From Macrostomum lignano (Eukaryota): 64,000 bases of DNA. Where the stretch lies: contig NIVC01000839.1 of NCBI GenBank assembly GCA_002269645.1, positions 248,001-312,000 of the forward strand. The letters are read 5' to 3'. A model generated the notes under the pieces. The model saw nothing but the letters and a program-made list of their open reading frames with translations. It was not told where the DNA came from and searched no databases. The translations under genes were made by a program, and so were the position numbers. Of the stretch, positions 28,701 to 59,471 are shown in pieces (the first letter of the stretch is position 1; the number at the start of each line of letters is the position of its first letter).

Positions 28701-29350
28701 GTTTCAGGTCTGCCAGTGGTTCAATAAATATCATAATTGTATTCATATTAACCCTACCGCAGGTATACGAACTTCAAGAAGACAGTCGGAAATTCGCCAA
28801 AGTAGAATCTGTCGTTCTGCCTAAGCCAGACACCGGGGTGAATGATTTACAGTTTGCTCCGAGTCTGGGCCGATCATTTCACCTGTTAGCCGTGGCCTCT
28901 CAGCAGATCAGTCTGTACAAGCTCCGGTTATCAACAGGTGGACAGCAACAACAGCAACAGTCAGGCGGGATGCTGCTTCAAGCTTCCCAATCTTCTTCAT
29001 CGCTAGACGTCGGCTCCAGCTCCGGTAGCACGGGCCGGTACGCTTTGAGCTGTATTCGAATTCTGGAGTATCAGCGCTGTCAGATGTCTGTCTGGCGGCT
29101 GAGCTGGAATGTACTTGGCACTGTGCTAGCTAGTTCGCTTGAAGATGGCACCGTCCGATTGTGGCAGGGCAATTATGCTGACCAGTGGAAGTGTCTGACT
29201 GTGATGACGCCTTCGGGTGATAGTCACACTGCTAGCTCTACCGATTTGAGTCAGCAACAACAGCAGCAGCAGATACCGGCTCAAACAACTGGAGTGCCTT
29301 TCGCTAAGATGGGCAGCATACAAGGCAGTCATCAGGTTGTTTGGAATTGA
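25720..29350 (+). CDS. SEH1L: Nucleoporin/GATOR2 subunit SEH1 (WD40), 4 exons (25720-25964, 26851-27115, 27877-28023, 28763-29350), about 414 aa
   Basis: MFVA...[11 protein letters not shown]...[64 protein letters not shown] and [16 protein letters not shown]...[16 protein letters not shown]. Intron phases 2, 0, 0 are consistent. Confidence 0.95.
26055..26745. repeat. 16/32-bp minisatellite (ctactcaagcttgaag/ctactcaaactcaaaa) in SEH1L intron 1
   Basis: Direct reading. Confidence 0.9.
27135..27775. repeat. 21-bp minisatellite (gggattcttgatttagcatct) in SEH1L intron 2
   Basis: Direct reading. The MLNQESQ ORFs are artefacts. Confidence 0.9.
28062..28622. repeat. 32-bp minisatellite (gccctgaagtgtcctatcccttctctacccgt) in SEH1L intron 3
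   Basis: About 17 units. Confidence 0.95.
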
Positions 29351-34119: not shown

Positions 34120-34641
34120 GTTCATGAATCATTTTTTTATGAAAAATAAATTCGAACTAAATAAAGTACATTTTTTCACATTGTTACCTGACATGCTTTG
34201 CTTGAAAACGACTTATACTTTATTTATTTAATTTTGCAGATGTTTACATTGTATACCAGCATGATACAAACTCTTTAGAGAGGTCACTGTTGTTTAAAAG
34301 AATGCATAAGGTGTTTGTTAGCCTAACGTTGAGGTCTTCACTCCCGTGTCGAAAGCCAACCCTGGCCGCTGTACACTGTGTGAGCATGTGTACTATTGGC
34401 GCGCTTGTATACGTTCAGGAGTCAGCTGAATAGGCAGAATTGCCGTCACCGCTGGATGTGGGAGAACGTCGCCGAATGCGTTGCGCCTGCGTGCCCGCAG
34501 CCCTCATACAGGAGAGCACTTAAAAAGCTTTAATGTTCTTTCCAAAAAAACTTGTCTAGTTTCTACCAACAGACGACGTGTAGTAATGTAATATTTCTTT
34601 TTTTCTTGTACACAGCTGTCTTTTCTCCCTATTTTTCAGAA

Positions 34642-36282
34642 ATGAGCCGCAGAAGCTCCAGCGACAGCTCGAGTTTGGAAGCGCCTCCCGCTACCCCAAC
34701 TCCTCTCTGCATCATCTGCGACCAAGCTGCAGTCGGTGTGGCTCCGTTCTCCCGCTGCCACATGTGCAGTCAACACCTCAGTGTCGATGTGGCCAATCTA
34801 TTCAAGCTCAAGGAAGAGGTCGAAGAGCTGCTGCTTGCCTACTCACAAGAGTCACAAGACTCACAAGAGTCACAAGACTCACAAGGCGCAGCAGGTGCAG
34901 CTAGCCGTGCAGCGCTGCTGCGACACCGACAAGACGCTGAGTCGCTGCGTCGTCTCGCTCTCGACATCCAACAGCAGCTGCAAGAGGTCAATCACAAATT
35001 CGATTTGGTACAGCAAAACATCGACTCGTTTCGTAGCAAGGTGACGGGCCAGCTCTCAGGTGTGCTTGAGGCAGTGCGTGTGTGCGAGCGGGACCTCGAG
35101 GACGTCTCCAGCTACAAGCAGGAGGTGGCCACGGCGGAGGCTGCAGGCGACATGGCGGAGCTGCTTCGCCTGGTCCAGTCCATGCACGAATCGCTTGGAG
35201 ACTTGGAGGCCGACTTTGAGAGGTCAGAGCGCCTGCTCAGAGAACAGAGCGACAATGAGGAGCTGCAGCTGCGGCTTCTGGGCCAGCTCGAGCGGCTGGT
35301 CGGCATTTGTGCGGGACGCAGCGAAGAGGTCGACTGGTCGAGAGACGTTGCGGTGACCGCGACATCGATAGCTGCTGAGAGAGAGAGAATGTTGGAGCCG
35401 ATGGTCTTCAGTCACGAGGTGAAGCTGGATGACCGTGTTGAATACCTGGCTGTGTGCAGCGACACCAGCGGATTCGTTTGTGACCGCTCAGGCCGTGTGG
35501 TTCCCGCGGACTCAGAGGGAGACGGCAGCGAGGCTCTGCCTCAGCCCTGCATCCTTGCATCATTCTATCACAGCAGAGACCACCTACTGGTGCTGTCTGT
35601 GGACGGCACACAGAAGCTGCGGTGCCACTGCGATATCGACTGGATGAAAGACATCCGTGGCCTTTACTGCGACCGTCAGCTGCTGTTCATTGCTCAGCGA
35701 GATGCCGTGGCAGTGACGGACCTGAGCGGTCGCGCGGTGCGTCGAGTCCGCCCACACATCGAGGGCTTCGCTGACATCAGGGGAATCGGAGGCAACGCAG
35801 CCTCCGTGTTTGTGTCCAGTGGAAACAAAATTGCTGCATTCAGCAAAGCGACTTGGGAGATCGAGACAGTCATCACGCTGTCTCAGCTTCCTGATGCTTA
35901 TTTGCGGAACCTGACGACTCACGACAACTGCATCCTGGTGACAGACAGAAGGCACCATCAGGTTCACAGAGTGCGCATCGACACCCAGCAGCTGGTCGCC
36001 TCCCTTCCAAGTGCCCGTTCTGATCTTTGTCAGCCATGGGACGTGGTAGTTGACAGGAGAGGCCGCCTGTTCGTAAGTGAGCACTATGCTCACTCAGTGC
36101 GAGCTTTGGCTGCAGACGACGGGTCGCTGCTGTGGACTCTGGGGACTCCGGGCAAGAGCGGCAGCGGAGACGGCAAACTTGGATATCCCTGTGGTCTGGC
36201 GGTGGTGACGGGAGGTCCGCACGAGCAGCTGGTGGTGGCTGACTGTGGCAGTCGTCTTGTATTTTTGAGCTTGTCAGATTAA
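34642..36282 (+). CDS. Intronless Zn-finger/coiled-coil/NHL-repeat protein, paralog 2, 546 aa
   Basis: ATG at 34642 follows a pyrimidine tract plus AG (likely a 5'UTR intron acceptor). CIICDQAAVGVAPFSRCHMCSQH, then coiled coil, then NHL blades (DVVVDRRGRLFVSEHYAHSV, GTPGKSGSGDGKLGYPCGLAV). Confidence 0.8.
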   Translation: MSRRSSSDSSSLEAPPATPTPLCIICDQAAVGVAPFSRCHMCSQHLSVDVANLFKLKEEVEELLLAYSQESQDSQESQDSQGAAGAASRAALLRHRQDAESLRRLALDIQQQLQEVNHKFDLVQQNIDSFRSKVTGQLSGVLEAVRVCERDLEDVSSYKQEVATAEAAGDMAELLRLVQSMHESLGDLEADFERSERLLREQSDNEELQLRLLGQLERLVGICAGRSEEVDWSRDVAVTATSIAAERERMLEPMVFSHEVKLDDRVEYLAVCSDTSGFVCDRSGRVVPADSEGDGSEALPQPCILASFYHSRDHLLVLSVDGTQKLRCHCDIDWMKDIRGLYCDRQLLFIAQRDAVAVTDLSGRAVRRVRPHIEGFADIRGIGGNAASVFVSSGNKIAAFSKATWEIETVITLSQLPDAYLRNLTTHDNCILVTDRRHHQVHRVRIDTQQLVASLPSARSDLCQPWDVVVDRRGRLFVSEHYAHSVRALAADDGSLLWTLGTPGKSGSGDGKLGYPCGLAVVTGGPHEQLVVADCGSRLVFLSLSD

Positions 36283-37184: not shown

Positions 37185-37558
37185 TGAGAACTTGCAGCTG
37201 AAGTCAGTGAACGCTTACTTGTATCGGCTCTTCATCTCTCTCTTCTCTCTTCTTCCATCTCGTCTCTTTTTATTCCTCCTTTCCTCTCACAAATATCTGG
37301 TCCATAGCCACTATCTAGATTATTTATCTGGCCTTTCAGGTAAGCCTCTGGGGTAGAACTACACGAGATTTTTTATTAGTAAATTCAGGATGCAGTAAGT
37401 ACATTAAAATTGGTAGTTTTGTGCTTTTTCAACTAAGGGCAATCTTTAAGATCAAGTTACTTTTTGTAGCAGAGATCAACGCTTTGTCTGTAAAATCGCC
37501 CCTGAAATACAGACTATAGACTATAGACAATCGCTCGATAATATATTGATTATTATAT

Positions 37559-37867
37559 TGATGAGGACGCACTTTTTTCCAAACTTCACGCTCGCACATG
37601 GGCTCCAAACTTAAAACTCCAAGGTTTCAGTGGACCAATGGCAAGGCGGTTCTCAGTCGATCAATCTATCAAATCAGTGAGCAAAATTGTCAATAGTGCA
37701 AAATCGGCGCTAAAGATGTACTCTGTGCACTCTAGGTTTGCCAAGCGGCTCGGGTAATGAATCATGCGGTCTCCGATGTTCGAGTTAGCCTATCATCAGC
37801 GCTATGAGAGGCTAGTTGGCGCGTTGACGGCCAAAATTACAATTCCTCGTATTTAGCAATGTAATAG
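37559..37867 (+). mobile_element. Older solo LTR, left part (split by the younger LTR element)
   Basis: Starts TGATGAGG and is a diverged reverse complement of parts of the long LTRs. Left flank ATAT (37555-37558) matches right flank ATAT (54132-54135). Confidence 0.85.
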
Positions 37868-38975
37868 TGATGGGTTTCGACCTTCGGGCTCCTTGTTAGG
37901 GAAGCCTTCGGGCCTCAGGCTCAGAAATAAATCAATTAGAGACCTGGCCCCCCACTCCTGTCAGATGGTCAGCCCCATGGTAGCTTGATCGTGTGGCGAG
38001 CAGTCTAGGTCCTATAGCTAAGAGAGGGACAGCGAGAGACGAGCAGGGAGAATTTTGAAAGTAGAAATTAGCTAATCCGCAGATCAACTAACTTGCTGCC
38101 ACCAGCCCGTGCGCCCTGGCTCACCACACCGGGACTCTCGAAATCGGGCTTCCGACTAGAAGGGGCTTTGCACTTACCTGCCAACTAGTGTCTTTTTGCT
38201 GTCAATCTCGAAGTCATAGCCGATGATAAGGGACACTGCTGGGACTAGATCGCGTTGGCCATGCAGGTACAGAGGGGACTTGTGCAGGGGATTCTTGCGG
38301 TGGCGAGTCTATGGGGTAGCTACATGTACTATTACATTGCTAAATACGAAGATATGTACTTTTAGCCTTCAACGCGCCAACTAGCCTCTCATGGCGCTGA
38401 TGATAGGCTAACTCGAACTTCAGAGACCTCGCATGATTCATTACCCGAGCCGCTTGGCTAACCTAGAGTGCACAAAGTACATCTCTGGCGCCGATTCTGC
38501 ACTTCTGGCAGTTTTGCTCACTGATTTGATTGATTGATCGACTGAGAACCGCCTTGCCATTGGTCCACTGTGACCGGCGCCTACTAGCTTAGCTACTCAT
38601 CTGAGCCATCGGCGAACAAAGAACTAAAACCGATAAAAATAACTGTCAGATTTAACCTTCTCCTTAGATCACTTCACACTTCGGATCGAATTGGAGTTTC
38701 AGACTACTGGCAGTATTATTGAATGATTTCTGCCTCAGTAACAGCACCACTGAACAAAATGAGCAAAAGTGTGCGCCTAATTCAGCTACTGAAACAGGGG
38801 ACAGATAGGGAATCACCCAATCAAGCAAGTCTAGGTAGCCTCTCACCCAACCAATCAGAAACTCAACAGCCGGAGACCAGGTACTTACTACTTACTTACT
38901 ACTGACGGGGGGCGCAGGCGCCGCGAATAGGCCGCGAGGCCCCTATCGCAACCCCAAGGTAAAAGAGCACAAGGA

Positions 38976-44060
<5,085 letters not shown>

Positions 44061-45250
44061 TTAGCCAGCAGCCAACTACTTAGCAGCCACCTGCCCCGCA
44101 AAAAAGCAGCAGGGGGGATCCGTCCCCCACCAGCAGACCAAGACGAGGAAGCTAGCCGCTTCCACGCCAGGCCAGAACGAAAAGGAGGGGGAAGAGCCTC
44201 CTCGAAAAACGAAAAGCTGGCGGATGTCACAAAGTCCCTCGGTTTAAGTTGCCGTTTGCCCCCCCGGAGACCAGGTAATCCACAGTGACCGAATCGGCTT
44301 GATGCTCTGCAGCTGTAGACTCGGGATGATGCTGTCAAGATCTTCACTGTCAGCTAGCAGGTGATGCTCTTCACTTGATGTTCGCTGCTGATGACCGGGG
44401 GACTCGTCCTTGATGATGACGGGGGGGAGTCGCAATCCGGGGATCAAGAGACGACGGTCAGGCTCCGGGAGGTCTCTAGCTAGGCCAAGTTCCCAGGAGG
44501 TTGAGGTCCGAGCGGGCCAAAAACACCGGTTTAAATAGCCGCCAACTGGACCGCCGTTTGTTATAACAGAACACGTCGATTCTGATTGGCTGAGCCGTTT
44601 TGTTAAAATGAGCGTCGAATTTTCTGATTGGCTAAGCTTGTTGCTACCCAGAATCACGTGACCGAGAGATCCTATCAGTTCCCACAGGGTCGTAAAAAGA
44701 TGACAGGTGCGGCCATAAATCACTCAAAATCGCAACAAAATGATTTATGACTTTTCGCGTAGGATTGACAGAAATTAATGAAAAAATATACATTAGAAAG
44801 CTCTTATTAAATAGAAAGTGAAGATAATGAAGAGAAATTGCTAATCGCTAATCCCAAAGTACTTTTAGGGGTAAAACGCATAGCTGTCAAAGCTGTCACA
44901 CGCTTGAGTGAATCCGAACAATAGGCTCTGACCTCATAAATCTTGATGGCCTGTCAAAACGATGAGAAAAAAAGCTACCGCCCGCATCCTCTCAGACCAT
45001 CTGGCGCCCGTCTCAACACTGAGTGAGGCGCAGGTGGCTGTCAGACCAGCTTCGAAAGCGATGATTTATGACCCAAAAAGCAATGCCTATGTTATTATGA
45101 CTACTAGTATGGCCAGACATTATATCTAGTATAGATTCTATGACAATTTGCAGAAAAAGGATAAAAATGCCCATCGCCCACTGTTAGTAGGCTAGTAAAT
45201 TTAGAGCCCATGTGCTAGCGCGGGATTTGGGAAAAAGTGCGTCCTCATCA

Positions 45251-45262
45251 TATGCCCCCCCT
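45251..45262 (-). promoter_or_regulatory. Polypurine tract before the 3' LTR
   Basis: Minus strand reads AGGGGGGG-CATA directly before TGATGAGG. Confidence 0.6.
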
Positions 45263-47289
45263 ATTTGTGAGTTGATCGCAGATTAACTCAAAAACAAAGA
45301 AGAAAAATGAGCGCAGTTTTGTACAAAATCGCAGCTAGCGCATCAAAGAGTAGTAAAAAATAAAAATAGTTACTCACAAATAGGTACTAAAAATATTAGA
45401 CTAATACGCATCCCAAGAATGGAAATCCCAAAAGAGAAAGAAATTGGGGAAAGGGAAGGATTGAAGAAAGAGAGGGATCAAGAGAAAGGTGCTTCAACTA
45501 AATATTGCATTGCAAATACAGTATCAAGTGCGAGATACACGTAAGGGGATAATAGACAGATAAATTATTGCCGCGCGAGAAGGTATAATTCAAAATGTGC
45601 GAGATGGAATAAACAGCGCATGTTCGATGAGACTAAGCTTCATTGTTCGCGTTCGAGTCAGTCTCGATTCTACCTGTTAAGCCTCTTGATGGCTTAATTC
45701 CTTTGCCGCGCGGCCGACCCGAGCCAGGATGGGCGAGGAGCTTGGGAAATGCGTTGCACATTCTCCCCTCCCGCCTGTGGAGTCCGCGTGCCTGGGGTTG
45801 CCGTGCTCATCTGGCGGCAGCCGACGAATGGTGACCCTCAGAGGATTAAGGGACCCTCGAGTCATCCTTGCTGACTGGCTGAGACGCTGCTGGGGGAGGA
45901 TGACCTCAACCGCCTCGAGTTCGCAGGGAGATAAAAGCGACTGACCACTCAGGTCATCCACAAGTTATGATTTTCGTCTTCGAATCCTGCGTCAGCCTCC
46001 GACTTGCCAGCCAGCGCTTCGCCACCGCCACCTTTGCTGATTTTGCACCAAGCCAGGCCAGCCGTTGCAGACCTCCGATCTTCGACTGGTAAGTCTCATC
46101 TCAGCTCTGTGATACTCTACCATACACTCTACTCAATCGGATAATCCCAGACCCATCCCACAGTCTCAGCAGCCTTCAGGGTACACTCCCTCCTACTCAT
46201 TTGCCCATTCAGTGCTGTGCAGATAGGTACTTTAAGATGTATTATTAACAAAGTCTCAGATAAGAGGCAGAATAATTTTTGAACACTAGTGTTAAATTTT
46301 TAAAAGTTCTTTCAAAGATTCTTGTCTTCAAGACTCCGCTTCAATTGCATTCACTTCCCAATTTAATTCACACAATCCCATTTTGTTTTACACTCAGTAT
46401 TACTACATATCAGTAGTATCGCACGGCCGCGAAATTCAGCTTAAATTTATCACTCCTAATTTGGTTTAGCAATTCGTATTAATCCAGGTGGACCATTCGT
46501 ACCTTATTTAAGACTTTTATTAGTTTAATTATGCCTAGTATTCTTCTATATTAATTACCTAATTCGCTCATCATTGATCTCTTTCTTCGCCTTGGCTCAG
46601 TGAGTTTAGTAACACGAGAAGTCCTAAATTTCAGTTTCAAACTTAACTCAAACCAAGGTTCAGTTTCACATTTAATTTCGAAAGCACTCACGACAAATTA
46701 AGCACAATAAGCAAGCAGTCACATTCACGCACACAACATATTGTTTCCGCCACCATTTGACGAACCTTTTACAAAAAAATGAGCAAAGAAGAAATTAGGC
46801 ACGACAAAATAAGCAATGACACAACAGAGAGAGAAATACGCGGAGATAAATAATGGCACAACATTGAGTATAAATATACTGGTAGAAAAAAAACGCATTT
46901 TTAAAGCACCGGGGGTATTCACAGGGGAATCGGGGGGTACAAAAGACAGTATGAGAAAGCAATAGTTCACGCAATAAGAGGATATATTTACAAGGGGCAT
47001 GGCAGCACAAAAAAAAGAAAAATAGGGAGTTCGAATTTTGCTCCGGCATGACAAAAACTTGGTTAAAAGCTGAACATATAAATATAGGTACTGTTCGCTA
47101 ACTAATCACTTGAGCCGAACGACTTAATCGAAAGATTACGTAAAATATTCTCCCTAATTAACTGTTTTCATCTATTCCCTCTATACATCCAACCTGTTAT
47201 AATACTTTTACGAAATAAACCGGATCTAGCAGAGGATAAGCAAGGGGAAAAGCGAATCGGGGCACCGACCTTCAGAGTTCTCAAGGAAG

Positions 47290-47802
47290 TCAACAAAATG
47301 GGAGCATTTGCCCCAATACTAATAGATTTCTAGTGTGGTAATCCAACAAAGCAGGTGCTGCTGCGAGGAAAGAGTTGCCCAACAGAGGCCTCGTGCCGGG
47401 GTCACTGGCAATCAGAAACATGACAGGCATGGTCTCACTGCCTAAGATGACTGTCAGCTTAGATTGACCCACAATCTCCAGTCTATGCCCGCTATAGGAA
47501 TAGATAGAAACTGTAGGGGCCTCCAACCTGTCCATATCATCGTTAGTGGCCGCCACGAAGTCTTTGAAGGGTAAGATGGAAACTGCCGACCCAGAATCGA
47601 TTAAGATTCGGACTGGCAATCTCTCTACTTGAACTTTTACATAAACATCAGCTTGAGAGCTTCTAAATGTTACAGACTTCCTAGGGACAATGAAATCGGG
47701 TACAAGATTCATTTTCCTTTTGCCACTGTTTACTAAATTTGCCCTTAAAAGTCCAGAAGAGGGGTGAGTGTGGGCACCACCCATCCCTACTCTCAGTTTT
47801 CC
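47290..47802 (-). CDS. Retropepsin-type aspartic protease in the -1 frame relative to gag
   Basis: VKVQVERLPVRILIDSGSAVSILP (DSG) and PLLGNSFL. The ORF stops right after the protease domain. Confidence 0.88.
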   Translation of the reverse strand, partial: GKLRVGMGGAHTHPSSGLLRANLVNSGKRKMNLVPDFIVPRKSVTFRSSQADVYVKVQVERLPVRILIDSGSAVSILPFKDFVAATNDDMDRLEAPTVSIYSYSGHRLEIVGQSKLTVILGSETMPVMFLIASDPGTRPLLGNSFLAAAPALLDYHTRNLLVLGQMLPFC

Positions 47803-49142
47803 GACCCAGCTGGGAGATAGAAAGTGGGCCGCTGTTTCTGTGCTCCAGGCGCCGGGGTTGGCGGGGGCCTCAAATTCTCTTCTCCCATACTGCTCTCTCC
47901 CTGGGTAGGAACATGCAGGGGAGGCGGGCGCGCGCGTGCACTGTTGCGCAACTGCGGGGGCCGGTAAACCTCAGTTCTTTCAGTCTGCTTGGCCGAGTCA
48001 CCATAAATCGCATTCTGCCTCTGTAGCGCGGGCTTCTCTGACAGATTTTGAGATGAGGGGGGCGGGGACTTGCCCTCAGGCGGTTGGCTAGCTCGCTCAG
48101 TATCTTCTACCACTGTGAGGTCTCCCTCCCAATGATCTGAGTGGCTTATCATGGCCCGATCGATCTTCTCCGCTACCTGACTCATAGCGCCGTAAATCTT
48201 GCCGACGGTTTCATCAAGGCTGTTTTGGCGCTGCTGTAAATCTGTCAATGCCTCTTCTACTTCCCTTCCTTCCTCCGACTCCAGCATGCGGACCCACCTG
48301 CGCTGATATTCTCTGTCGCTGGGGCGATTTTGATCTCTGTTTCTCTCGTCCCTACGCTGATCATATCTGGGCTGGTCTCGCGCTAAGCGCCGGGAAATCT
48401 CATCTGCCTCTTGGAGATTCTGCTGCGCTGCCAGCACTTCATCAATGCTGCGAAACTGTTGCCCTAGCAGCGACTTGCGCACATCTGGGGCAATATCAGC
48501 CGTTTCCAAGTAGGCGAAGATCACCTCCGACTCTAACTGTCTAGGACTCATGTCGGGGTAAGCAGAAGCTATCACACTACGCACCATGGCCGAGTAGGCG
48601 TGGTGATTCTGGCCTGCTTTCTGTTTCAAATTCCGGACTTTGTTCCTCTTCGCTAATTCTGAACTGGCTTCTCCTACCTGGCGACCTAACCTTTCTATGA
48701 ATTCTTCGAAGTCAAGGCCGGGATGGAGGGCAATAGCAAGACTCTGCAGATCTGGGGGGAGGAGCGAGATTACTGTGCTCTTCTTCTGCTCTCTATCCCT
48801 AATCTCTTCAGATCTGAGCTTGAATTTGACTCTGCCAACCCACTGTGGGAAGCAGGATTCTGTTGGGTTGAATTTCTCAACGCTAATCTTGACACTCTGT
48901 GTCTCTCTGCCCAATCCGATAGCTGCAAGGGCTTGCGCTAATTGGGCTGCCATGTCGGCGGCTTGGGGTTGAGGTGGGGCTCTTTGCGGGGATGACCCGC
49001 ACTCTGATACATTTGGGGAGACCGAGCCCTGGGACGAAAATTCGCAGGCGGCTGCAGCGGCGGCTGCTGATCCGTTCCTATTCCCTCTACCTCTTCTGCC
49101 TCTACCTCCTGACTTACTGGTACTGGAATTACATGTTTCCAT
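47793..49142 (-). CDS. Retrotransposon Gag (capsid-like), 449 aa
   Basis: SVEKFNPTESCFPQWVGRVKF, FEEFIERL and VRNLKQKAGQNHHAYSAMVRSVIASAYP resemble the Ty3/gypsy capsid region. Intact ORF; no CCHC knuckle. Confidence 0.85.
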   Translation of the reverse strand: METCNSSTSKSGGRGRRGRGNRNGSAAAAAAACEFSSQGSVSPNVSECGSSPQRAPPQPQAADMAAQLAQALAAIGLGRETQSVKISVEKFNPTESCFPQWVGRVKFKLRSEEIRDREQKKSTVISLLPPDLQSLAIALHPGLDFEEFIERLGRQVGEASSELAKRNKVRNLKQKAGQNHHAYSAMVRSVIASAYPDMSPRQLESEVIFAYLETADIAPDVRKSLLGQQFRSIDEVLAAQQNLQEADEISRRLARDQPRYDQRRDERNRDQNRPSDREYQRRWVRMLESEEGREVEEALTDLQQRQNSLDETVGKIYGAMSQVAEKIDRAMISHSDHWEGDLTVVEDTERASQPPEGKSPPPSSQNLSEKPALQRQNAIYGDSAKQTERTEVYRPPQLRNSARARPPPLHVPTQGESSMGEENLRPPPTPAPGAQKQRPTFYLPAGSEN

Positions 49143-51650
49143 AGTTCGGGCACAACACCAGTTGCCGGGACAGAACTAAAGGATGAAAATCTGAACCGGG
49201 GCGGAAAAAATGAATGCAATTGGCTACTAGCCGAAATTGGGTGTCTGCTTCAAAGCAAGACAATGGCAATGAATCGAATCGAATGGGGGGAAGGGGGGGA
49301 GGAGATTGTGCAAAAAGCCTAACTGGGGTAGGGTTTTGACACAAGTAAGCAATGGGGGGTTGAGCGCCGCGAGTTGGGGAGCTCAAAGCAAAAACAATAA
49401 ATTACAAGCAAAAATAAGCAAAAAGCAAAGAACACGCAAATAAGCAAAAGATACGCGATCTATATACAAAAAGCGTACAATACGAGCGCGGGGCTTGCGA
49501 TAATGATCGCAAACACAGCACAAAAATGGAAAAATATGCAAAAACCAACGAAGCGGAAACTTCACTTATTCCACTCGCACCGCAGTCACACTTGACTCAA
49601 ATTTTTTCACACCTAAAAATCCTTCTGTCTCTGTCTTGAATCCGATCTCGGATTTTCTCGAATTGCTGCTTTTAAACTCACTGGTTCTCAACTGGGCTAA
49701 GGCCACAGCTTTCCGCAGGCTACTACAGTCTCAGTCTCTCTTTCTCTCTGAGCGGCTCTTTTTGCTTCCGAATAATTTTAATGGGCTAGTTAATCATGGA
49801 GGGTCTCATCAGCTCTCATTAGTCTAAATTGCAGGCGCCAATATGTGGGCACCTCATGTGTATCAGAGCTCTCCTGCGTGGTATCGCCACTAGGAAACCG
49901 TCCGGGTGCTGCTACGGCTAGACAGATTCACAATCCCCATCAAGGCTGATCTTTTAGCGGAACTTGGACGTCTGACCCAGCGCGCCCAGTGGCCCCTCTG
50001 TGTAGCTTTCGTCAGCATTGACCGGTGAGGGCGGATTACACCTAATATACGATACTCGCGAACAGACAGATAATACACAAGGAGTTAAGCAGGTCCGTAG
50101 TGTAGTGTTCACTCCGCAACAAAACCTTATGGCACGGTCCCTAAGAACTTTGATCATAGAAAAAACTATGGGCAGCAGGAAAGTTTGTCAAATATTATGA
50201 CCCTACGTTATCGGGTCGGGTATTTTTATAGCGGCGAACCACAGAAGACATCTGTGTCTTGAGTCAGTAGAGTCTGTCCAGACAAAGCTGCGCTCCCCTC
50301 CTCTTGCTATCATAAAAATGAATAGCCACGGCGTTTTCTGCTCTCTGCAGAATCGTTAACCAGAGCGGTAGCTGGAATTCGCACATACTACCATGGCACC
50401 GTGTGGGTAATTCTCTCCGCTTTCCTTACTGTATTTACATTAGATACCCCTCCGATTCTAAGAAAGAACCAAAAGAGCAAAAGCAAACTTCCAAACCCTA
50501 AATTCCGCAACCAGGAAAAATTACATGTGCACTGGCAAACTGTACTACTGAAAGTAATACCTACACACTTCCCAGACTCCTAGGCTAAGCAGATGGTAAA
50601 TGTACGAACTTAAAGTAACTTCAGACCTCACAATTCTGTACCCAAACCCAAAGTAGCGTGGCTGTTCTCGCGTTCCGGTAGCCGTCGACCCCAGACATAT
50701 TTTTCAGGACATGGATGTCTGACCCAGCGCATCCAGAGGCCCAACGGCACAGCACTTGCCATTGTTAGCCGGAATACCGAGAATTGCGGTGGGAATTTGA
50801 GCTCTCCGTTGCCACTTAAGGCGATTTATACCACCAAAGCCCGAATAGCGGACAACAATTCGTGAGAAGCACTCAGATAGAACACCCCGATTTAAATCGA
50901 AATGATACTATAATCACACAGTACGCTAATCCGACTGTCCCGTACTAATCTGCTCCAGAGTATAACCTTTGAACCCAAAACCCGTGAGGCCCTGCGTATG
51001 AAACCAAGGCTTCGCACATCCAAAAAGCTGCCTGATTCTAAATTTTGCAAACAAGACAAAAACTACGAGCGCTGTCAGCATTCTATAATGAACGTTTTGG
51101 CCGAGGAAGCATTATCATTCGGATAATGGCCTCTTGTCTACACGACAAAAATTAATAGCTTAATTTCGAGTGATCAGTTCGAAACTTTTCTGTTTAGCAA
51201 AAGTACAAGAACTATCCTAAGTCTCTATTTTCCGCATAATTAGCTGGCTGAAATCAAAACTGGAGAACTAAGCAGAGAGCCTAGATAACTGATCAAGCTG
51301 AGAGAGTTATCTGTGCGGGGTTGATTTTTTTTATATGCTCTGGCTTTTTGAATTTTATAATTTTTTTGGTTGATTTTTTGAATAGGCATGCATTTAATGA
51401 TAAGCAATTCATACTAGTAATTTTTTTTTGGTTCCAGTAGCATAAATTTTTTGTGCATTTTTGGACTCTCATAACTCAGACTTGAAAAGCTATCGCAACT
51501 GACTACTTACAGTAATTTGAAAGAAACCTAAATTCACAATTTTGAAATCTAAACGGCGCAACTCGATTTTATTATTGTCACAATTTGCCATTTACCAGCC
51601 ATCACTACCGGTGAGCACTTTACCACTTCTTACCGGCTAGTGTTTACCAT

Positions 51651-51668
51651 ATCCCACCGCTGCCACCA
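51651..51668 (-). promoter_or_regulatory. Primer-binding site complementary to the tRNA-Leu 3' end
   Basis: Minus strand reads LTR...CA-AA-TGGTGGCAGCGGTGGGAT. The plus strand, ATCCCACCGCTGCCACCA, is the eukaryotic tRNA-Leu(IAG-type) 3' end as I recall it. Confidence 0.85.
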
Positions 51669-51670
51669 TT

Positions 51671-53658
51671 TGATGGGTTTCGACCTTCGGGCTCCTTGTT
51701 AGGGAAGCCTTCGGGCCTCAGGCTCAGAAATAAATCAATTAGAGACCTGGCCCCCCACTCCTGTCAGATGGTCAGCCCCATGGTAGCTTGATCGTGTGGC
51801 GAGCAGTCTAGGTCCTATAGCTAAGAGAGGGACAGCGAGAGACGAGCAGGGAGAATTTTGAAAGTAGAAATTAGCTAATCCGCAGATCAACTAACTTGCT
51901 GCCACCAGCCCGTGCGCCCTGGCTCACCACACCGGGACTCTCGAAATCGGGCTTCCGACTAGAAGGGGCTTTGCACTTACCTGCCAACTAGTGTCTTTTT
52001 GCTGTCAATCTCGAAGTCATAGCCGATGATAAGGGACACTGCTGGGACTAGATCGCGTTGGCCATGCAGGTACAGAGGGGACTTGTGCAGGGGATTCTTG
52101 CGGTGGCGAGTCTATGGGGTAGCTACATGTACTATTACATTGCTAAATACGAAGATATGTACTTTTAGCCTTCAACGCGCCAACTAGCCTCTCATAGCGC
52201 TGATGATAGGCTAACTCGAACTTCAGAGACCTCGCATGATTCATTACCCGAGCCGCTTGGCTAACCTAGAGTGCACAAAGTACATCTCTGGCGCCGATTC
52301 TGCACTTCTGGCAGTTTTGCTCACTGATTTGATTGATTGATCGACTGAGAACCGCCTTGCCATTGGTCCACTGTGACCGGCGCCTACTAGCTTAGCTACT
52401 CATCTGAGCCATCGGCGAACAAAGAACTAAAACCGATAAAAATAACTGTCAGTTTTAACCTTCTCCTTAGATCACTTCACACTTCGGATCGAATTGGAGT
52501 TTCAGACTACTGGCAGTATTATTGAATGATTTCTGCCTCAGTAACAGCACCACTGAACAAAATGAGCAAAAGTGTGCGCCTAATTCAGCTACTGAAACAG
52601 GGGACAGATAGGGAATCACCCAATCAAGCAAGTCTAGGTAGCCTCTCACCCAACCAATCAGAAACTCAACAGCCGGAGACCAGGTAATCCACAGTGACCG
52701 AATCGGCTTGATGCTCTGCAGCTGTAGACTCGGGATGATGCTGTCAAGATCTTCACTGTCAGCTAGCAGGTGATGCTCTTCACTTGATGTTCGCTGCTGA
52801 TGACCGGGGGACTCGTCCTTGATGATGACGGGGGGAGTCGCAATCCGGGGATCAAGAGACGACGGTCAGGCTCCGGGAGGTCTCTAGCTAGGCCAAGTTC
52901 CCAGGAGGTTGAGGTCCGAGCGGGCCAAAAACACCGGTTTAAATAGCCGCCAACTGGACCGCCGTTTGTTATAACAGAACACGTCGATTCTGATTGGCTG
53001 AGCCGTTTTGTTAAAATGAGCGTCGAATTTTCTGATTGGCTAAGCTTGTTGCTACCCAGAATCACGTGACCGAGAGATCCTATCAGTTCCCACAGGGTCG
53101 TAAAAAGATGACAGGTGCGGCCATAAATCACTCAAAATCGCAACAAAATGATTTATGACTTTTCGCGTAGGATTGACAGAAATTAATGAAAAAATATACA
53201 TTAGAAAGCTCTTATTAAATAGAAAGTGAAGATAATGAAGAGAAATTGCTAATCGCTAATCCCAAAGTACTTTTAGGGGTAAAACGCATAGCTGTCAAAG
53301 CTGTCACACGCTTGAGTGAATCCGAACAATAGGCTCTGACCTCATAAATCTTGATGGCCTGTCAAAACGATGAGAAAAAAAGCTACCGCCCGCATCCTCT
53401 CAGACCATCTGGCGCCCGTCTCAACACTGAGTGAGGCGCAGGTGGCTGTCAGACCAGCTTCGAAAGCGATGATTTATGACCCAAAAAGCAATGCCTATGT
53501 TATTATGACTACTAGTATGGCCAGACATTATATCTAGTATAGATTCTATGACAATTTGCAGAAAAAGGATAAAAATGCCCATCGCCCACTGTTAGTAGGC
53601 TAGTAAATTTAGAGCCCATGTGCTAGCGCGGGATTTGGGAAAAAGTGCGTCCTCATCA
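51671..53658 (-). repeat. 5' LTR, 1988 bp, uninterrupted
   Basis: TG...CA termini; adjacent to the PBS. Confidence 0.92.
52938..53070 (-). promoter_or_regulatory. Putative LTR promoter: E-box, two CCAAT boxes, TATA-like TATTTAAA
   Basis: Minus strand reads CACGTG...AGCCAATCAG...AGCCAATCAG...TATTTAAA. The same motifs are in the 3' LTR at 44530-44660. Confidence 0.5.
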
Positions 53659-53662
53659 ATAG

Positions 53663-54131
53663 TACATGTAGTATAGCTACCCCATAGACTCGCCACTGCA
53701 AGAATCCCCTGCACAAGTCCCCTCTGTACCTGCATGGCCAATGCGATCAAGTCCCAGCAGTGTCCCTTATCATCGACTATGACTTCGAGATTGACAAGCA
53801 AAAAGACACTAGTTGGCAGGTAAGTGCAAAGCCCTCTCTAGTCGGAAGCCCGATTTCGAAAGTTCCGGTTTGGTGAGCCAGGACGTACGGGATATGGTGG
53901 CAGCGGGTTAGTTAATCTGCGGATTAGCTGATCTCTACCTTCAAAATTCTCCCTGCTTGTCTCTCGCTGTGCCTCTCTTAGCTATAGGACCTAGACTGTT
54001 CGCCACAAGATCAAGCTACCATGGGGCTGACCATCTGACAGGAGTGGGGGGCCAGGACTCTAATTGATTTATTTCTGAGACCTGAGGCCCGAAGGCTTCC
54101 ACAAAGGGGCCGAAAAGGCCGAAACCCATCA
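53663..54131 (+). mobile_element. Older solo LTR, right part
   Basis: Diverged reverse complement of 51671-52135. Ends CCCATCA followed by ATAT. Confidence 0.85.
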
Positions 54132-54374
54132 ATATTCTCAAGTAATATGACTAGATATTGCTGGTCAGCATTTTCAAACTAGCATGGTGTGCCCATGCGT
54201 TAGCAGGCAAGGTTATAGACTTAATTCTGCCACTGGGATTCCACTTAAACTTAATACTACTCATTTATAGCTATTAGTCTACGAGTATAGTACTAGCAAC
54301 ACTAGCAATCTCGAACTCCCGTTTTGAAGGAGTACTTCGTAGAACTTCACTACAGTATGGTTACTATTTAATAA

Positions 54375-54480
54375 ACATCAAAACGCATCAGTACACACTG
54401 AGGCAGATCAAAACACGTCAGGACACACCGAGGCACATCAAAACACATCAGGACACACTGAGGCACATCAAAAAACACCA
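54375..54480. repeat. Short ~30-bp tandem repeat (catcaaaacacatcaggacacactgaggca)
   Basis: 3-4 units. Confidence 0.75.
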
Positions 54481-55014: not shown

Positions 55015-57544
55015 ATGAGTCTCTTTACGCTTCTAACCGCAATCTTTCTGACAGCATTCGTTCAGGCCTCGATGACGGCTAAGAGTGAGTTCTCAAATGC
55101 ACCCATAAATGTTCTATAGGCTACATAATTATTTAATAATAATAATATTCACTGAGCTGAGGCAATTCTGCCCATTCTGCTGACTCCTAAGCATACAACT
55201 GTAAACAAAAACTTGTACATGTAGCTCTTCTTTCGAGAATTATATAACATACTACCGCAAGAAACTGCATCCTTTTCCTTTCATTCACTGTCCGAATTTT
55301 CTAGTTGCTGGTCAACGCTGCGAGGCCAAATCGTTCGTTTACGATCGTCGGCACGAGAGCACACGCGGACATCACTGCGAGTTTGGTAATTGGTGACCAT
55401 TCTGCTGGGGTTTGAGGTGTCTTCGTGGCGTACGCCAGACAGATAAACTATGATCAGTAACTGAGGAAATCTGCTGTTACTATGTGTATTGCGATGCAGT
55501 GGTAATTCTTAATCCTCCCCGCAGCTCCCCAGAACTGGTGGCGAATCAGCGAAGCCTGCAAGGATCTCCGCAAGAACCGACCGTCTCCCATCAGCATCCC
55601 ACTGGGAGTCTGCAAGACTAAGTCCAAAAACTTGAAAAACATCACGCTTGGACGGGGCTGGTCTCGCGAAAGAGATTTTATCGTTAAAAATAACGGGCAT
55701 TCAAGTGAGTTATTATCGTGTTCTGTTCCTTCTACTACTCTTAGTAGGCGGTTAAAGAAAATATTGCATAACTGCACAGTATTTTATAAAAAAGCAAATT
55801 TCGTGTCAATTGCTAACCTGCCTGCTCACAAATCACCTGTCTGCTCACAAATCACCTGTCAGTGCTCACAAATCACCTGTCAGTGCTCAGAAATCACCTG
55901 TCAGTGCTCACAAAGCACCTGTCTGCTCACAAATCACCTGTCAGTGCTAAAAAATCACCTGTCAGTGCCCACAAATCACCCGTCAGTGCTCACAAAACAC
56001 CTGTCAGTGCTCACAAATCACCTGTCAGTGCTCACAAATCACCTGTCAGTGCTAAAAAATCACCTGTCAGTGCTCACAAATCACCTGTCAGTGCTCACAA
56101 ATCACCTGTCAGTGCTCACAAAACACCTGTCAGTGCTCACAAGGCAACTCCCACACCATCTACCCTCTCCACAGTCCAAGCAGACGCGGTGGACGGTGCC
56201 GACCTGACGGTGACGGGAGGCCACCTGAAAGGCACCTACAGCTGCATCCAGTTCCACTTCCACTGGGGCAGCCGGGCCAACATGGAGAAGGGCATCGGCA
56301 GCGAGCATCGGCTGGTTGACGCGGCCGGCAAGGAGGTGCCGACGCCTCTGGAGGTGCACATCGTGTGCAAGCGGCGGGAGCTGAGCGTCAAACAGGCTGT
56401 CAGCACCCCAGACGCCATCGCTGTGCTGGGGGGCTTCATCCAGCCCATGAAGGTGAGGCTCTGGTTCTGTTCACTCCAGCGTGTATATGAGTGCTCAGGT
56501 TCGATTCTGTGCTCAAATAGAAAGATCTCACACAGAGTGTACAGCAGCCTTCACTTTCTAATCGTCAGGCATGTTTAAGTAACTAAAATTACTCAACTAA
56601 AGTACATTTTCAGCTCGTAATATATCCCTAATTGATTCCAGCCCACAGAGGAAGACACCTGGGCTGATTACGCAATTTCCCAGGTGCTGGGCTACATGAC
56701 GGGACTGCTGAAACCTGTGGAGCACGGAGCCGCGGTGTCTCACGAAGGTTAGTCTGTCAAGCAGGGAAATAATTATCAAAAATGTATTTTAATTGTCATT
56801 TAACCGAGAGACAGGTAGACAATGTATTTGTCCACGACTGATATGCTAGAATGCATAAACACCCGGCAAACTTAAAGGCAGTCTTTACTTAGCTCATACG
56901 TAGTCAATGAGCAGTCAATGAGCAGTCAATGAGCAGTCCATCTCAAGCCCTCCCACTTGCCTCTGCAGATGCACCGACAGTGCAGCTGCAGCTCCGCGAC
57001 CTTCTGCCCGACAACCTCCAGCGGTTCGTGAACTACGATGGAGCCTTCACCACCCCTGGCTGCAACCCGGTGGCGCAGTGGCATCTCTTCACCGACATGA
57101 TGAAGATCCGCAAGGAGCTGGTGAGAACTCGATATTGATCAGGCTGTAGATCAGGCTGTAGATCAGGCTGTAGATCAGGCTATAGATCAGGCTGTAGATC
57201 AGGCTATAGATCAGGCTGTAGATCAGGCTGTAGATCAGGCTATAGACCAGGCTGTAGATCAGGCTATAGATCAGGCTATAGATCAGGCTATAGATCAGGC
57301 TATAGATCACGCTGGTGATCAGGCTATAGATCAGGCTATAGATCAGACTGTAGATCAGGCTACAGATCAGGCTATAGATCAGGCTATGGATCAGGCTCAC
57401 ATGAAACCCCCCGAACCTCTCCAGCTGTTGCAGTTCACAACGGCTTTTTTTGACAAAGCCAAGACTCGCCCGATGGTGAACAATTTCCGCCCCGTGATGA
57501 GCCGGCACGGCCGAGAGATTCGCTGCAGCTTCGGCAACATTTAG
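55015..57544 (+). CDS. Secreted alpha-carbonic anhydrase, copy 1, 7 exons (55015-55084, 55305-55385, 55525-55704, 56175-56452, 56642-56747, 56969-57120, 57425-57544), about 328 aa
   Basis: Hydrophobic N-terminus MSLFTLLTAIFLTAFVQAS; PSPI, NNGHS, QFHFHWG, GSEH, EVH, GAFTTPGC and NNFRP. All GT-AG phases are consistent. Confidence 0.9.
55815..56140. repeat. 21-bp minisatellite (gtcagtgctcacaaatcacct) in CA copy 1 intron 3
   Basis: The same unit is in copy 2 intron 3. Confidence 0.95.
57137..57400. repeat. 12-bp minisatellite (gatcaggctata/gatcaggctgta) in CA copy 1 intron 6
   Basis: Direct reading. Confidence 0.95.
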
Positions 57545-57974: not shown

Positions 57975-58150
57975 GCTTAAATGGGTGTGAGTTTGTTTGA
58001 ATGGGTGTGAATTTGTTTTAATGGGCGTGAATTTGTTTGAATGGGCGTGAATTTGTTTGAATGGGCGTGAATTTGTTTGAATGGGCGTGAATTTGTTTGA
58101 ATGGGCTTGAATTTGTTTAAGTTGGCGTGAATTTTTTTAAATAGGCGTGA
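57975..58150. repeat. 20-bp minisatellite (aatgggcgtgaatttgtttg) abutting the truncated NHL paralog 3
   Basis: About 9 units. Confidence 0.9.
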
Positions 58151-58151
58151 A

Positions 58152-59471
58152 TTGGTACAGCAAAACATCGACTCGTTTCGTAGCAGAGTGACGGGCCAGC
58201 TCTCAGGTGTGCTTGAGGCAGTGCGTGTGTGCGAGCGGGACCTCGAGGACGTCTCCAGCTACAAGCAGGAGGTGGCCACGGCGGAGGCTGCAGGCGACAT
58301 GGCGGAGCTGCTTCGCCTGGTCCAGTCCATGCACGAATCGCTTGGAGACTTGGAGGCCGACTTTGAGAGGTCAGAGCGCCTGCTCAGAGAACAGAGCGAC
58401 AATGAGGAGCTGCAGCTGCGGCTTCTGGGCCAGCTCGAGCGGCTGGTCGGCATTTGTGCGGGACGCAGCGAAGAGGTCGACTGGTCGAGAGACGTTGCGG
58501 TGACCGCGACATCCGATAAGATAGACAGAAATATAGCTGCTGAGAGAGAGAGAATGTTGGAGCCGATGGTCTTCAGTCACGAGGTGAAGCTGGATGACCG
58601 TGTTGAATACCTGGCTGTGTGCAGCGACACCAGCGGATTCGTTTGTGACCGCTCAGGCCGTGTGGTTCCTACTGACTCAGCGGGAGACGGCAGCGAGGCT
58701 CTGCCTCAGCCCTGCATCCTGGTATCATTTCTTATCAACAGAGACCACCTGCTGGTGCTGTCTGTGGACGGCTCACAGAAGCTGCGGTGCCACTGCGACA
58801 TCGACTGGAAGAAGGAAATCTGGGGCCTTCACTGCGACCGTCAGCTGCTGTTCATTGCTCAGCATGACGCAGTGACAGTGACGGACCTGAGCGGTCGCGT
58901 GGTGCATCGAGTCCGCCCACACAACGAGGGCTTCGCTGACATCAGGGGAATCGGCGGCAACGCAGCTCGAACGCAGTTTCCACTGGTGTTTGTGTCCAGT
59001 GGAAACAAAATTGCTGCATTCAGCAAAGCGACTTGGCAGATGGAGACGGTCATCACGCTGTCTCAGCTTCCTCATGCTCGACTGGGTAACCTGGCGACTC
59101 ACGACAACTGCATTCTGGTGAGAGACTGGATGCACAATCAGGTGCACAGAGTGCGCATCGACACCCAGCAGCTGGTCGCCTCCTTCCCGACTCAGCGTTC
59201 CGGCCTCCAACACTTTTCTATGCCACTGGATGTGGCCGTCGACAGCAGAGGCCGCCTGTTCGTGAGTGAACATTGGGGTCACTCAGTGCGAGCGGTGGCT
59301 GCAGACGACGGGTCGCTGCTGTGGACTCTGGGGACTCCGGGCGAGAGCGGCAGCGGAGACGGCAGATTCGACGGGCCATGGGGTCTGGCGGTGGTGCCGG
59401 GAGGTCCGTGCGAGCAGCTGGTGGTGACTGACCTTTTCAACAGCAGACTGCAGGTGTTCAGTGCACCCTAA
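58152..59471 (+). CDS. NHL-repeat protein paralog 3, lacking the Zn-finger N-terminus (5'-truncated, or upstream exon not found)
   Basis: From ttggtacagcaaaac onward it is near-identical to paralog 2 (35006 onward) and diverges toward the 3' end. The frame is open to 59471. Confidence 0.7.
   Translation: MVQQNIDSFRSRVTGQLSGVLEAVRVCERDLEDVSSYKQEVATAEAAGDMAELLRLVQSMHESLGDLEADFERSERLLREQSDNEELQLRLLGQLERLVGICAGRSEEVDWSRDVAVTATSDKIDRNIAAERERMLEPMVFSHEVKLDDRVEYLAVCSDTSGFVCDRSGRVVPTDSAGDGSEALPQPCILVSFLINRDHLLVLSVDGSQKLRCHCDIDWKKEIWGLHCDRQLLFIAQHDAVTVTDLSGRVVHRVRPHNEGFADIRGIGGNAARTQFPLVFVSSGNKIAAFSKATWQMETVITLSQLPHARLGNLATHDNCILVRDWMHNQVHRVRIDTQQLVASFPTQRSGLQHFSMPLDVAVDSRGRLFVSEHWGHSVRAVAADDGSLLWTLGTPGESGSGDGRFDGPWGLAVVPGGPCEQLVVTDLFNSRLQVFSAP

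Follow-up and report, generated by a model that had tools for sequence, protein, structure and literature searches.

Mobile LTR retrotransposon families that encode only Gag and a protease are documented in plants. In wheat, RLG_Sabrina_SA and RLG_WHAM are Gypsy families described as semi-autonomous; they encode Gag-Pro, reported as one ORF, number thousands of copies, and have RLG_Wilma as their named autonomous partner (PMC9744471). In the Brassicaceae, derivatives of ATHILA with Gag-protease only account for 934 of 2,322 intact ATHILA elements (bioRxiv 10.64898/2026.03.20.713144) and are also reported in PMC11735389, and wheat Fatima has subfamilies of this kind, 1.4 and 1.5 (PMC6097303); these sources derive them from a known autonomous plant form by a deletion of ~3 kb that recurs. 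Some young pol-less LTR families are described as having Gag alone, i.e., neither protease nor frameshift: zebrafish BHIKHARI Bik-1 and Bik-2, which are retrovirus-derived and of which Bik-2 consists of solo LTRs in 337 of 393 cases (PMC12067270), and TR-GAG of plants, which is under 4 kb and Copia-like (PMC4350172). Finally, PEG10/RTL2, PNMA3/5 and ASPRV1 are domesticated Metaviridae genes, and the heptamer of PEG10, PNMA3 and PNMA5 is G_GGA_AAC (PMC11299033). An animal Gag-protease-only family that keeps a -1 frameshift was not found in the limited open-access literature covered, repeat databases lying outside its scope.

The window (the whole 64,000-nucleotide stretch of Macrostomum lignano contig NIVC01000839.1 that was analysed) contains an element that can be compared with each of these systems. 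Our preferred reading, to which we give a probability of about 0.55, is that it is a recent Ty3-type Gag-Pro element, belonging to what is likely a semi-autonomous family copied with the enzymes of a relative.

Architecture and age of the element

The element is ~10.4 kb in size without a LINE that lies inside it. Its non-coding landmarks and nested neighbours are:

51671..53658, minus strand: 5' LTR, 1,988 bp, ends TGATG...CATCA
44264..45250, minus strand: 3' LTR, first part
37868..38883, minus strand: 3' LTR, second part
51651..51668, minus strand: primer binding site (PBS), 18 of 18 nt identical to a published tRNA-Leu(AAG) 3'-end probe
45255..45266, minus strand: polypurine tract (PPT), ending in G7, 4 nt ahead of the 3' LTR
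37864..37867 (left) and 53659-53662 (right), no strand: target site duplication (TSD) ATAG
38884..44263, minus strand: LINE inside the 3' LTR, with ORF1, endonuclease, RT, RNase H and a short tandem-repeat tail
37559..37867, plus strand: left part of an older solo LTR of the element's own family, the insertion target
53663..54131, plus strand: right-hand part of this solo LTR

A preliminary description had reported near-identical LTRs of about 2 kb together with an intact PBS, PPT and 4-bp TSD, and all of these were located, the PBS at a distance of 2 nt from the 5' LTR. Its picture of LTRs flanking the internal region holds for the 5' LTR, which is whole, but not for the 3' LTR, which is split by the LINE and is not contiguous. 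Because the LTRs differ by two substitutions and a single-base indel within a run of G over 1,988 bp, and the 4-bp TSD is clean, the copy was inserted recently.

The neighbourhood is nested. The LINE is 5.4 kb long and has a 14-bp TSD at 38870-38883 and 44264-44277; the older solo LTR is 778 bp long, has the TSD ATAT, is oriented opposite to the element, and is 85-92% identical to the long LTR while being short of ~1.2 kb. Both were absent from the preliminary description.

The TG...CA ends of the LTRs, the PBS, the PPT and the TSD are those of Ty3/Gypsy (Metaviridae) elements, as are the D-S/T-G retropepsin and, with moderate strength, the Arc/Ty3-type capsid fold described below. The element is a minus-strand LTR retrotransposon of Ty3 type, a class assigned from these features. 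The sense strand of the LTR has no heat-shock element, TATAAA or AATAAA, there are no tRNA genes within the 64-kb window, and a search of 45000-53700 with Rfam gave a single match (E 0.83), which was taken as chance.

Gag, protease and the predicted frameshift

The coding part of the element comprises two overlapping frames and two predicted signals:

47793..49142, minus strand: gag, intact ORF of 449 aa, residues 82-271 with a predicted capsid fold
47290..47970, minus strand: retropepsin, in the -1 frame with respect to gag; DSG motif at 47598-47590; stop codon straight after the domain
47796..47802, minus strand: G_GAA_AAC, predicted slippery heptamer for the -1 shift, in the final codons of gag
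47757..47787, minus strand: predicted stimulatory hairpin, 8 nt past the heptamer

The intact Gag (49142-47793) and the frameshifted DSG protease ending right past its domain (-1 frame, open 47970-47290) are thus as first reported. Past the protease stop there are three further in-frame stops inside 100 nt; an assembly indel as the source of the stop was considered and rejected, as a contig of another copy (X10 record 5) has 0 gaps there. The nearest solved relative of the protease is ASPRV1 (E 3.6e-10), and GNS stands at the position of the GTD of ASPRV1. G_GAA_AAC is the only in-frame relaxed slippery heptamer within the gag/protease overlap, and the hairpin ranks 8 of 1,817 gag-pro windows, with a stability not above that of its own shuffles (z -0.83). 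Frame geometry, heptamer and this hairpin are all consistent with a predicted -1 frameshift from gag into protease, which is likely how the protease is made.

Gag itself has no Pfam match. It has Arg-rich patches near residues 11-30 and 251-280 and a Pro-rich tail, and there is no CCHC knuckle in any of the three frames of gag-pro. Both phmmer matches of Gag (22% identity) carry Retrotrans_gag, and both of these distant relatives keep the zinc knuckle that is missing here. In a single-sequence fold model of residues 82-271 only (pLDDT 73), VIA-align placed the Arc CTD at the top (Z 9.0, 149 aligned, rmsd 5.9), followed by PNMA2 (Z 6.3) and dArc1 (Z 6.0); the top four Foldseek matches were Arc, Arc, PNMA2 and the Ty3 capsid (best E 0.013, none at E <= 0.001). 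Thus, residues 82-271 are predicted to fold like the capsid of Arc, PNMA2 and Ty3. Word-indexed protein searches gave nothing at E <= 0.001 for Gag against proteins of similar length, nor for Gag or the protease against longer proteins, these last two negatives being weak evidence; exact look-up gave no match for Gag or for four proteins of the window, and no relative was found in viral contigs with the protease, with P0003, or with an LTR-end motif.

Domesticated genes of the PEG10 type are fixed and without LTRs, and PEG10 Gag carries a CCHC knuckle. The preliminary description had called the layout of this element PEG10-like; the order of gag and a -1 protease bears this out, as an analogy only, the layout having already been described in mobile plant elements. 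That the element is itself a domesticated PEG10-like host gene, as this order and the nearest solved relatives (domesticated Arc, PNMA2 and ASPRV1) might suggest, is highly improbable and already largely refuted: in place of a fixed single-copy gene without mobile LTRs there are young, near-identical LTRs, a fresh TSD, a nest of other elements and several variant copies, and the structural matches mirror which Ty3-derived proteins have been solved.

Missing pol and the other copies

Outside the coding frames, the internal region and the point at which it differs among copies are as follows:

49143..51650, minus strand: 2.5-kb leader, non-coding, 32 upstream ATGs
45251..47289, minus strand: non-coding 3' region of 2.0 kb, tolerant of indels among copies, in which no trace of pol or env was found
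47150..47172, minus strand: junction where other copies depart from the window sequence (X13 records 13 and 14; X10 record 5)

ORFs, motifs and Pfam gave no sign of RT, RNase H, integrase or env in the leader or the 3' region, in agreement with the earlier claim. The YxDD, HHCC and CCHC motifs are absent from the 3' region, the leader and the LTR; the longest stop-free stretches in six frames are 126, 106 and 132 aa, respectively; and Pfam found retroelement domains in 0 of 18 read-through frames, a weakly sensitive negative, as a LINE-endonuclease-like stretch at 709-1470, spotted by eye, was missed as well. A proposed search for RT and integrase remnants at 45251-47289 gave none with Pfam or tblastn. 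For the latter, a scan of metagenomes with P0004 had given three loci, matching only at the zinc knuckle, one of which (L003) has a retrovirus-like pol; this distant pol as query against 45251-53658 gave a best E of 1.7, a weak negative. A 126-aa hydrophobic frame (47105-46725) was rejected as an env remnant, having no Pfam match and 11-14 gap letters in copies. The element is without the RT, RNase H and integrase ORF of an autonomous Ty3 element, and the evidence supports the view that this copy is unable to reverse-transcribe or integrate alone.

Other copies, from organisms A and B, were compared as contig pieces from four runs, of which the X10 run is guessed to be RNA; among the listed pieces, none spans a whole copy or shows a further full-length copy that lacks pol and has a TSD of its own. 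One contig of organism B (X13 record 14) spans 47172-51086, across the protease stop, and one of organism A (X10 record 5) spans 47167-47563 with seven substitutions, 0 gaps and four in-frame stops crossed. The ratio of 3'-region to gag depth was 0.74, 1.49, 0.60 and 0.55 in the four runs, summed contig depth not being copy number. Because the 3' region has a depth similar to that of gag-pro, and two contigs from two organisms cross the protease stop, the Gag-Pro layout is likely not a one-off, to judge from these sequences. Thus, of the non-autonomous lineage first proposed, the young copy, the lack of its own RT and integrase, and the recurrence of the stop and 3' region stand, whereas pol in other copies is possible.

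The preliminary description had also taken the intact ORFs as a sign of selection, which does not follow: with LTRs 0.1% apart, intact ORFs are expected without selection. The sole hint of selection is a ~14%-diverged subfamily that is gap-free across the protease (X2 record 20, 67 differences in 466; X5 record 28, 52 differences in 398, 0 gaps), non-coding pieces among those listed having 6-14 gaps each. Perhaps the element is a pol-less passenger, copied in trans via its LTR, PBS and leader alone, in which gag-pro is intact only as its pol-bearing ancestry is recent and decay is pending. The copy is too young for visible decay, a gag-deleted variant (joint 48449-48863) occurs in two runs (X2 and X5), and Gag is without the knuckle of its relatives; yet the layout is common to organism B at ~5% divergence, the diverged subfamily keeps its protease gap-free, and the end of gag still has its slippery site and hairpin, and we regard this explanation as distinctly unlikely.

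At 47150-47172, two contigs of organism B depart from the window sequence, one at 47172 (491 unlike bases) and the other at 47150 (1,192 unlike bases), ~16-21 window bases being covered by neither side. X10 record 5 of organism A, which has a depth of 10.5 in a bin of 15.5, departs at 47167 and has 205 unlike bases. Because these contigs depart there, the window copy is probably a shortened form, and the extra sequence (at least 1,192 bases) in organism B could hold pol; there may be a long form with RT-integrase as a separate ORF behind the stop-terminated protease. On such a view, the window copy would have arisen by internal deletion within a longer family, and the segment of that family at this point would encode RT, RNase H and integrase, whether intact or decayed, in a reading frame distinct from that of the protease. 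The uncovered bases resemble a deletion with filler more than an insertion with a TSD, a long non-coding tail 3' to the missing segment is what a standard element would show, ATHILA shows that ~3-kb pol deletions recur, and the frame at -1 to that of the protease has no stop between ~47329 and 47171. However, this frame of 39 codons has a chance P of ~0.19 and was treated as chance and not as coding, the stop that closes it (47170-47168) lies inside the alignment of X10 record 5, and by eye there is no slippery site near the protease end. A PR-RT fusion of the usual kind is unlikely there, given that another copy aligns at the protease stop without gaps and that an organism B contig runs across it; and should the two organism B contigs adjoin each other, the extra part would come to ~1.65 kb, which is not enough for a full pol. 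Such a derivation is possible, though doubtful.

With respect to a partner, LTR/gag depth was 44, 128, 6.8 and 56 in the four runs and PBS-proximal/leader depth was 1.4, 2.2, 2.5 and 1.2, i.e., contigs cover the PBS-proximal ~450 bp of the leader in excess of its remainder. This excess of LTR and PBS-proximal leader over gag-pro is as expected if a partner has them too; the LTR excess could come from solo LTRs alone. Protein, viral-contig and LTR-motif searches found no partner sharing the LTR ends and PBS, and two LTR-end motifs are absent from supplement 5 of PMC12801592.

According to the preferred reading, i.e., a semi-autonomous Gag-Pro family, ribosomes would slip at G_GAA_AAC, extending a minority of Gag to Gag-protease; Gag would build particles, which the protease would mature; and RT, RNase H and integrase would be supplied by the Gag-Pol of a partner having in common with the element the LTR, the PBS and the PBS-proximal leader (likely the packaging signal). 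RNA might be captured, without a zinc knuckle, via the Arg-rich patches of Gag or via the nucleocapsid of the partner.

Significance and comparison with known systems

Should the lineage prove to be real and selection to act on it, it would reveal the role of a PEG10-like cassette that is still selfish, and would provide a small natural capsid-plus-protease system, whose knuckle-less Gag raises the question of how RNA is selected. RT-seeded annotation pipelines, such as that described in PMC12801592, miss pol-less families of this kind. If the extra segment at 47150-47172 holds pol, the window copy is an ordinary deleted copy or an unusual split-pol element.

Turning to the comparison, the Gmr1 and Osvaldo clades of animal Ty3 elements have long LTRs and 4-bp TSDs. 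The element resembles them in its 4-bp TSD, 2-kb LTR and gag ending at a slippery site, a likeness short of a clade call, which needs the RT and integrase that are absent here. With PEG10 and the PNMA genes as described in PMC11299033, it has in common a Gag that leads into a -1 frame through a heptamer of the G_GxA_AAC type with downstream structure (predicted here), the heptamer being G_GAA_AAC and not G_GGA_AAC. The likeness is one of parts, the predicted capsid fold being as in PNMA2 and Arc and the protease as in ASPRV1; in contrast to the PEG10 type, the element is mobile and multi-copy and has no CCHC knuckle. Bik-1/Bik-2 and TR-GAG, as described, are likewise young pol-less LTR families with gag intact; unlike TR-GAG, the element is ~10.4 kb long and has a protease.

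The ATHILA derivatives and Fatima, according to the sources cited above, also retain Gag and protease, have lost RT, RNase H and integrase, and are still mobile; here, the TSD is 4 bp and a long form is suggested by contig ends. In the account of Sabrina_SA and WHAM (PMC9744471), there is again an LTR element with intact Gag and protease and no RT or integrase, for which mobilisation by a partner is inferred; the element described here has an animal host, its protease is read in the -1 frame, its internal region seems to have few copies, and the searches gave no partner. An unlikely further reading is that this is an animal Ty3 lineage that is pol-less across two species, in which a selected, knuckle-less gag/-1-frameshift/protease cassette provides capsid and protease for a far more abundant partner sharing its LTR: a division of labour like that of Wilma, Sabrina and WHAM, and a mobile stage towards genes of the PEG10, PNMA and ASPRV1 type.

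The insertion and its neighbourhood

The element, an LTR retrotransposon of the Ty3 type, lies on the minus strand with its internal region at 45251-51670.

Features of the element and of the surrounding window
51671-53658, minus: 5′ LTR, 1,988 bp, TGATG...CATCA
51651-51668, minus: primer-binding site (PBS), 18/18 bases equal to a published tRNA-Leu(AAG) 3′-end probe
49142-47793, minus: gag ORF, 449 aa
47970-47290, minus: protease frame, -1 to gag, DSG
4 nt before the 3′ LTR, minus: polypurine tract (G7)
44264-45250 and 37868-38883, minus: 3′ LTR in two parts, interrupted by a 5.4-kb LINE
37864-37867 and 53659-53662: target-site duplication (TSD) of the element, ATAG
37559-37867 and 53663-54131: two parts of an older solo LTR flanking the element
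38884-44263: full-length LINE with RNase H, within the young 3′ LTR
22254-23729, 34534-36282 and 58131-59471: three long stop-free frames, paralogous coiled-coil/beta-propeller genes
28670-29350: WD40 exon, which we take to resemble nucleoporin SEH1
55817-56578 and 62121-62825: duplicated carbonic-anhydrase exon, adjoining a 21-bp tandem repeat
455-1470: broken LINE-endonuclease-like frame, recognized by eye; no Pfam match

The preliminary description of near-identical LTRs with a PBS, a polypurine tract and a 4-bp TSD was real and accurate, but did not mention that the 3′ LTR is split by a LINE. A 1-bp indel within a G run and 2 substitutions separate the two LTRs. The element landed in a solo LTR of its own family, 778 bp long, older and oppositely oriented, which has its own TSD (ATAT) and is 85-92% identical to the LTR of the element; both TSDs begin with ATA, which hints at a target preference. 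The LINE (14-bp TSD) is younger than the LTR element, because it is located inside the young 3′ LTR. Its frame breaks coincide with G runs, where the contigs of 4/4 sequencing runs differ by one base, suggesting homopolymer errors in the assembly. Around the insertion, the coiled-coil/beta-propeller genes make up a local tandem family; both frames scanned have NHL repeats. The leader (49143-51650) contains a 34-bp repeat (49962-49995 and 50709-50742, 85% identical, 747 bp apart), which may be left over from an old duplication or be a signal present twice.

Gag, protease and the absence of pol

The window copy is without pol. Each frame of the 3′ non-coding region (45251-47289), the leader and the LTR is broken by 22-49 stops, and none of the reverse transcriptase (RT), integrase or zinc-knuckle motifs sought is present there; Pfam detected no retroelement domain in 18/18 frames translated through stops as X, and a distant retroviral pol used as query against the element gave a best E of 1.7. 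The claimed lack of RT and integrase is thereby borne out, and no remnant of either was found by the Pfam and pol searches in 45251-47289, although a badly decayed relic could escape Pfam, because the LINE-endonuclease-like stretch was also missed.

Both coding claims of the preliminary description hold: an intact Gag and a DSG protease ending right after its domain. Pfam has no retroelement match for the 449-aa ORF, which is assigned to Gag because of its phmmer relatives, its Atlas neighbours and its predicted fold. Against 1.84 billion representatives, phmmer returned only two matches (22% identity, E about 2e-5 and 5e-5), both with Retrotrans_gag and a zinc knuckle, and in the Atlas the ORF lies next to retrotransposon-Gag and PNMA clusters (0.92). 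Residues 82-271 were modelled from the single sequence (pLDDT 73); a comparison of this model with 48,161 chains ranked Arc first (Z 9.0, 149 aligned, rmsd 5.9), followed by PNMA2 (6.3) and dArc1 (6.0); Foldseek placed Arc, Arc, PNMA2 and Ty3 capsid on top, none at E <= 0.001. Unlike both phmmer relatives, the element has no CCHC knuckle in any gag-pro frame; Arg-rich patches lie near Gag residues 11-30 and 251-280. Elsewhere, a zinc knuckle led to metagenome contig L003 (1184-4694), with retrovirus-like gag, dUTPase-protease and pol frames labelled by eye.

The protease matches ASPRV1 over the entire domain (E 3.6e-10), and its stop is followed by 3 further in-frame stops within 100 nt. A -1 frameshift from gag to protease is predicted from the sequence: the 3′ end of gag reads G_GAA_AAC_UGA, the sole relaxed in-frame slippery heptamer in the gag/protease overlap (2 in 450 codons). 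A predicted hairpin 8 nt downstream ranks 8/1,817 in stability among gag-pro windows and is no more stable than its own shuffles (z -0.83 and 0.39 in two calculations). PEG10, PNMA3, PNMA5 and Rtl3 have G_GGA_AAC, in contrast to G_GAA_AAC here, with structure 5-8 nt downstream (PMC11299033).

Other copies and the likely mode of copying

Contigs of 4/24 runs, three from organism A and one from organism B, were aligned to 37400-54400 at 85% likeness; the comparison lists 40/933 differences and 32/>16,000 pieces, and contig depth is not copy number. The most likely working of the element, at a probability of roughly 0.55, is that of a semi-autonomous Gag-Pro element copied with the enzymes of a partner. 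It has its cis-signals, a young insertion and intact gag and protease frames. A -1 slip would yield a minority Gag-protease product, Gag would assemble particles for the protease to mature, a partner with the LTR, PBS and leader in common would supply RT and integrase, and RNA might be captured via the basic patches of Gag or the partner's nucleocapsid.

Counted towards a partner are the depth excesses of the LTR (44, 128, 6.8 and 56x gag-pro in the four runs, which may reflect solo LTRs only) and of the PBS-proximal leader (1.2-2.5x the remaining leader; in organism B, 70.8 vs 21 for gag-pro among the pieces listed). Counted towards a lineage are the depth of the 3′ region (0.55-1.49x gag-pro, 4/4 runs), a gap-free protease stop, the organism B contigs and a diverged subfamily. 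The protease stop region is common to the window copy and other copies: record 5 of X10, an organism A run, aligns gap-free through all four stops and has 7 substitutions. Among the pieces listed, organism B has one 4,390-nt contig over 47172-51086 (about 95%) and two over 45825-47150; the ~14%-diverged subfamily covers the protease gap-free (67 differences in 466, 52 in 398) and departs from the window sequence 18 nt past the stop, and non-coding pieces have 6-14 gaps. Counted against the lineage are the unlike sequence at 47150-47172, described below, and a gag-deleted variant at 48449-48863 (413 bases exchanged for 55) in organism A runs X2 and X5. At 47349, 47654 and 48669 in gag-pro, (nearly) all aligned contig depth has a different letter from the window, reflecting either private changes of the window copy or assembly errors.

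The main rival, which is possible but clearly less probable, holds that the window copy arose by deletion from a long form whose pol lies in an extra segment at 47150-47172. The organism B contigs flanking this junction continue into unlike sequence (491 and 1,192 bases), as does X10 record 5 at 47167; the common form therefore probably exceeds the window copy by 1.2 kb or more. On this reading, pol would need a frame of its own beyond the protease stop. The intactness of the ORFs had been taken to indicate selection, an argument that in so young a copy is insufficient by itself; a passive passenger, in which gag-pro has simply not decayed so far, is doubtful, and domestication very improbable.

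Comparison with known systems

Among the titles and abstracts that searches of open-access text returned, no animal mobile family with only Gag and a -1 protease was found. Judging by the Atlas neighbours and the similarity to PNMA and ASPRV1, the host is likely an animal, perhaps a flatworm of the Macrostomum type. Two flatworm LTR surveys would miss such an element, because they start from RT (bioRxiv 10.1101/2024.12.18.629116; PMC12801592). Gag-only families include TR-GAG in plants (PMC4350172) and Bik-1/2 in zebrafish (PMC12067270). The element resembles, in having gag and protease without pol, several mobile plant elements: wheat RLG_Sabrina_SA and RLG_WHAM, mobile LTR families termed semi-autonomous, with RLG_Wilma as partner (PMC9744471); the mobile wheat Fatima subfamilies 1.4 and 1.5 (PMC6097303); and ATHILA derivatives (934/2,322 intact elements, 10.64898/2026.03.20.713144; also PMC11735389). 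Beside these, it is best filed as a likely animal, knuckle-less, non-autonomous Gag-Pro Ty3 element with a predicted, retained frameshift.
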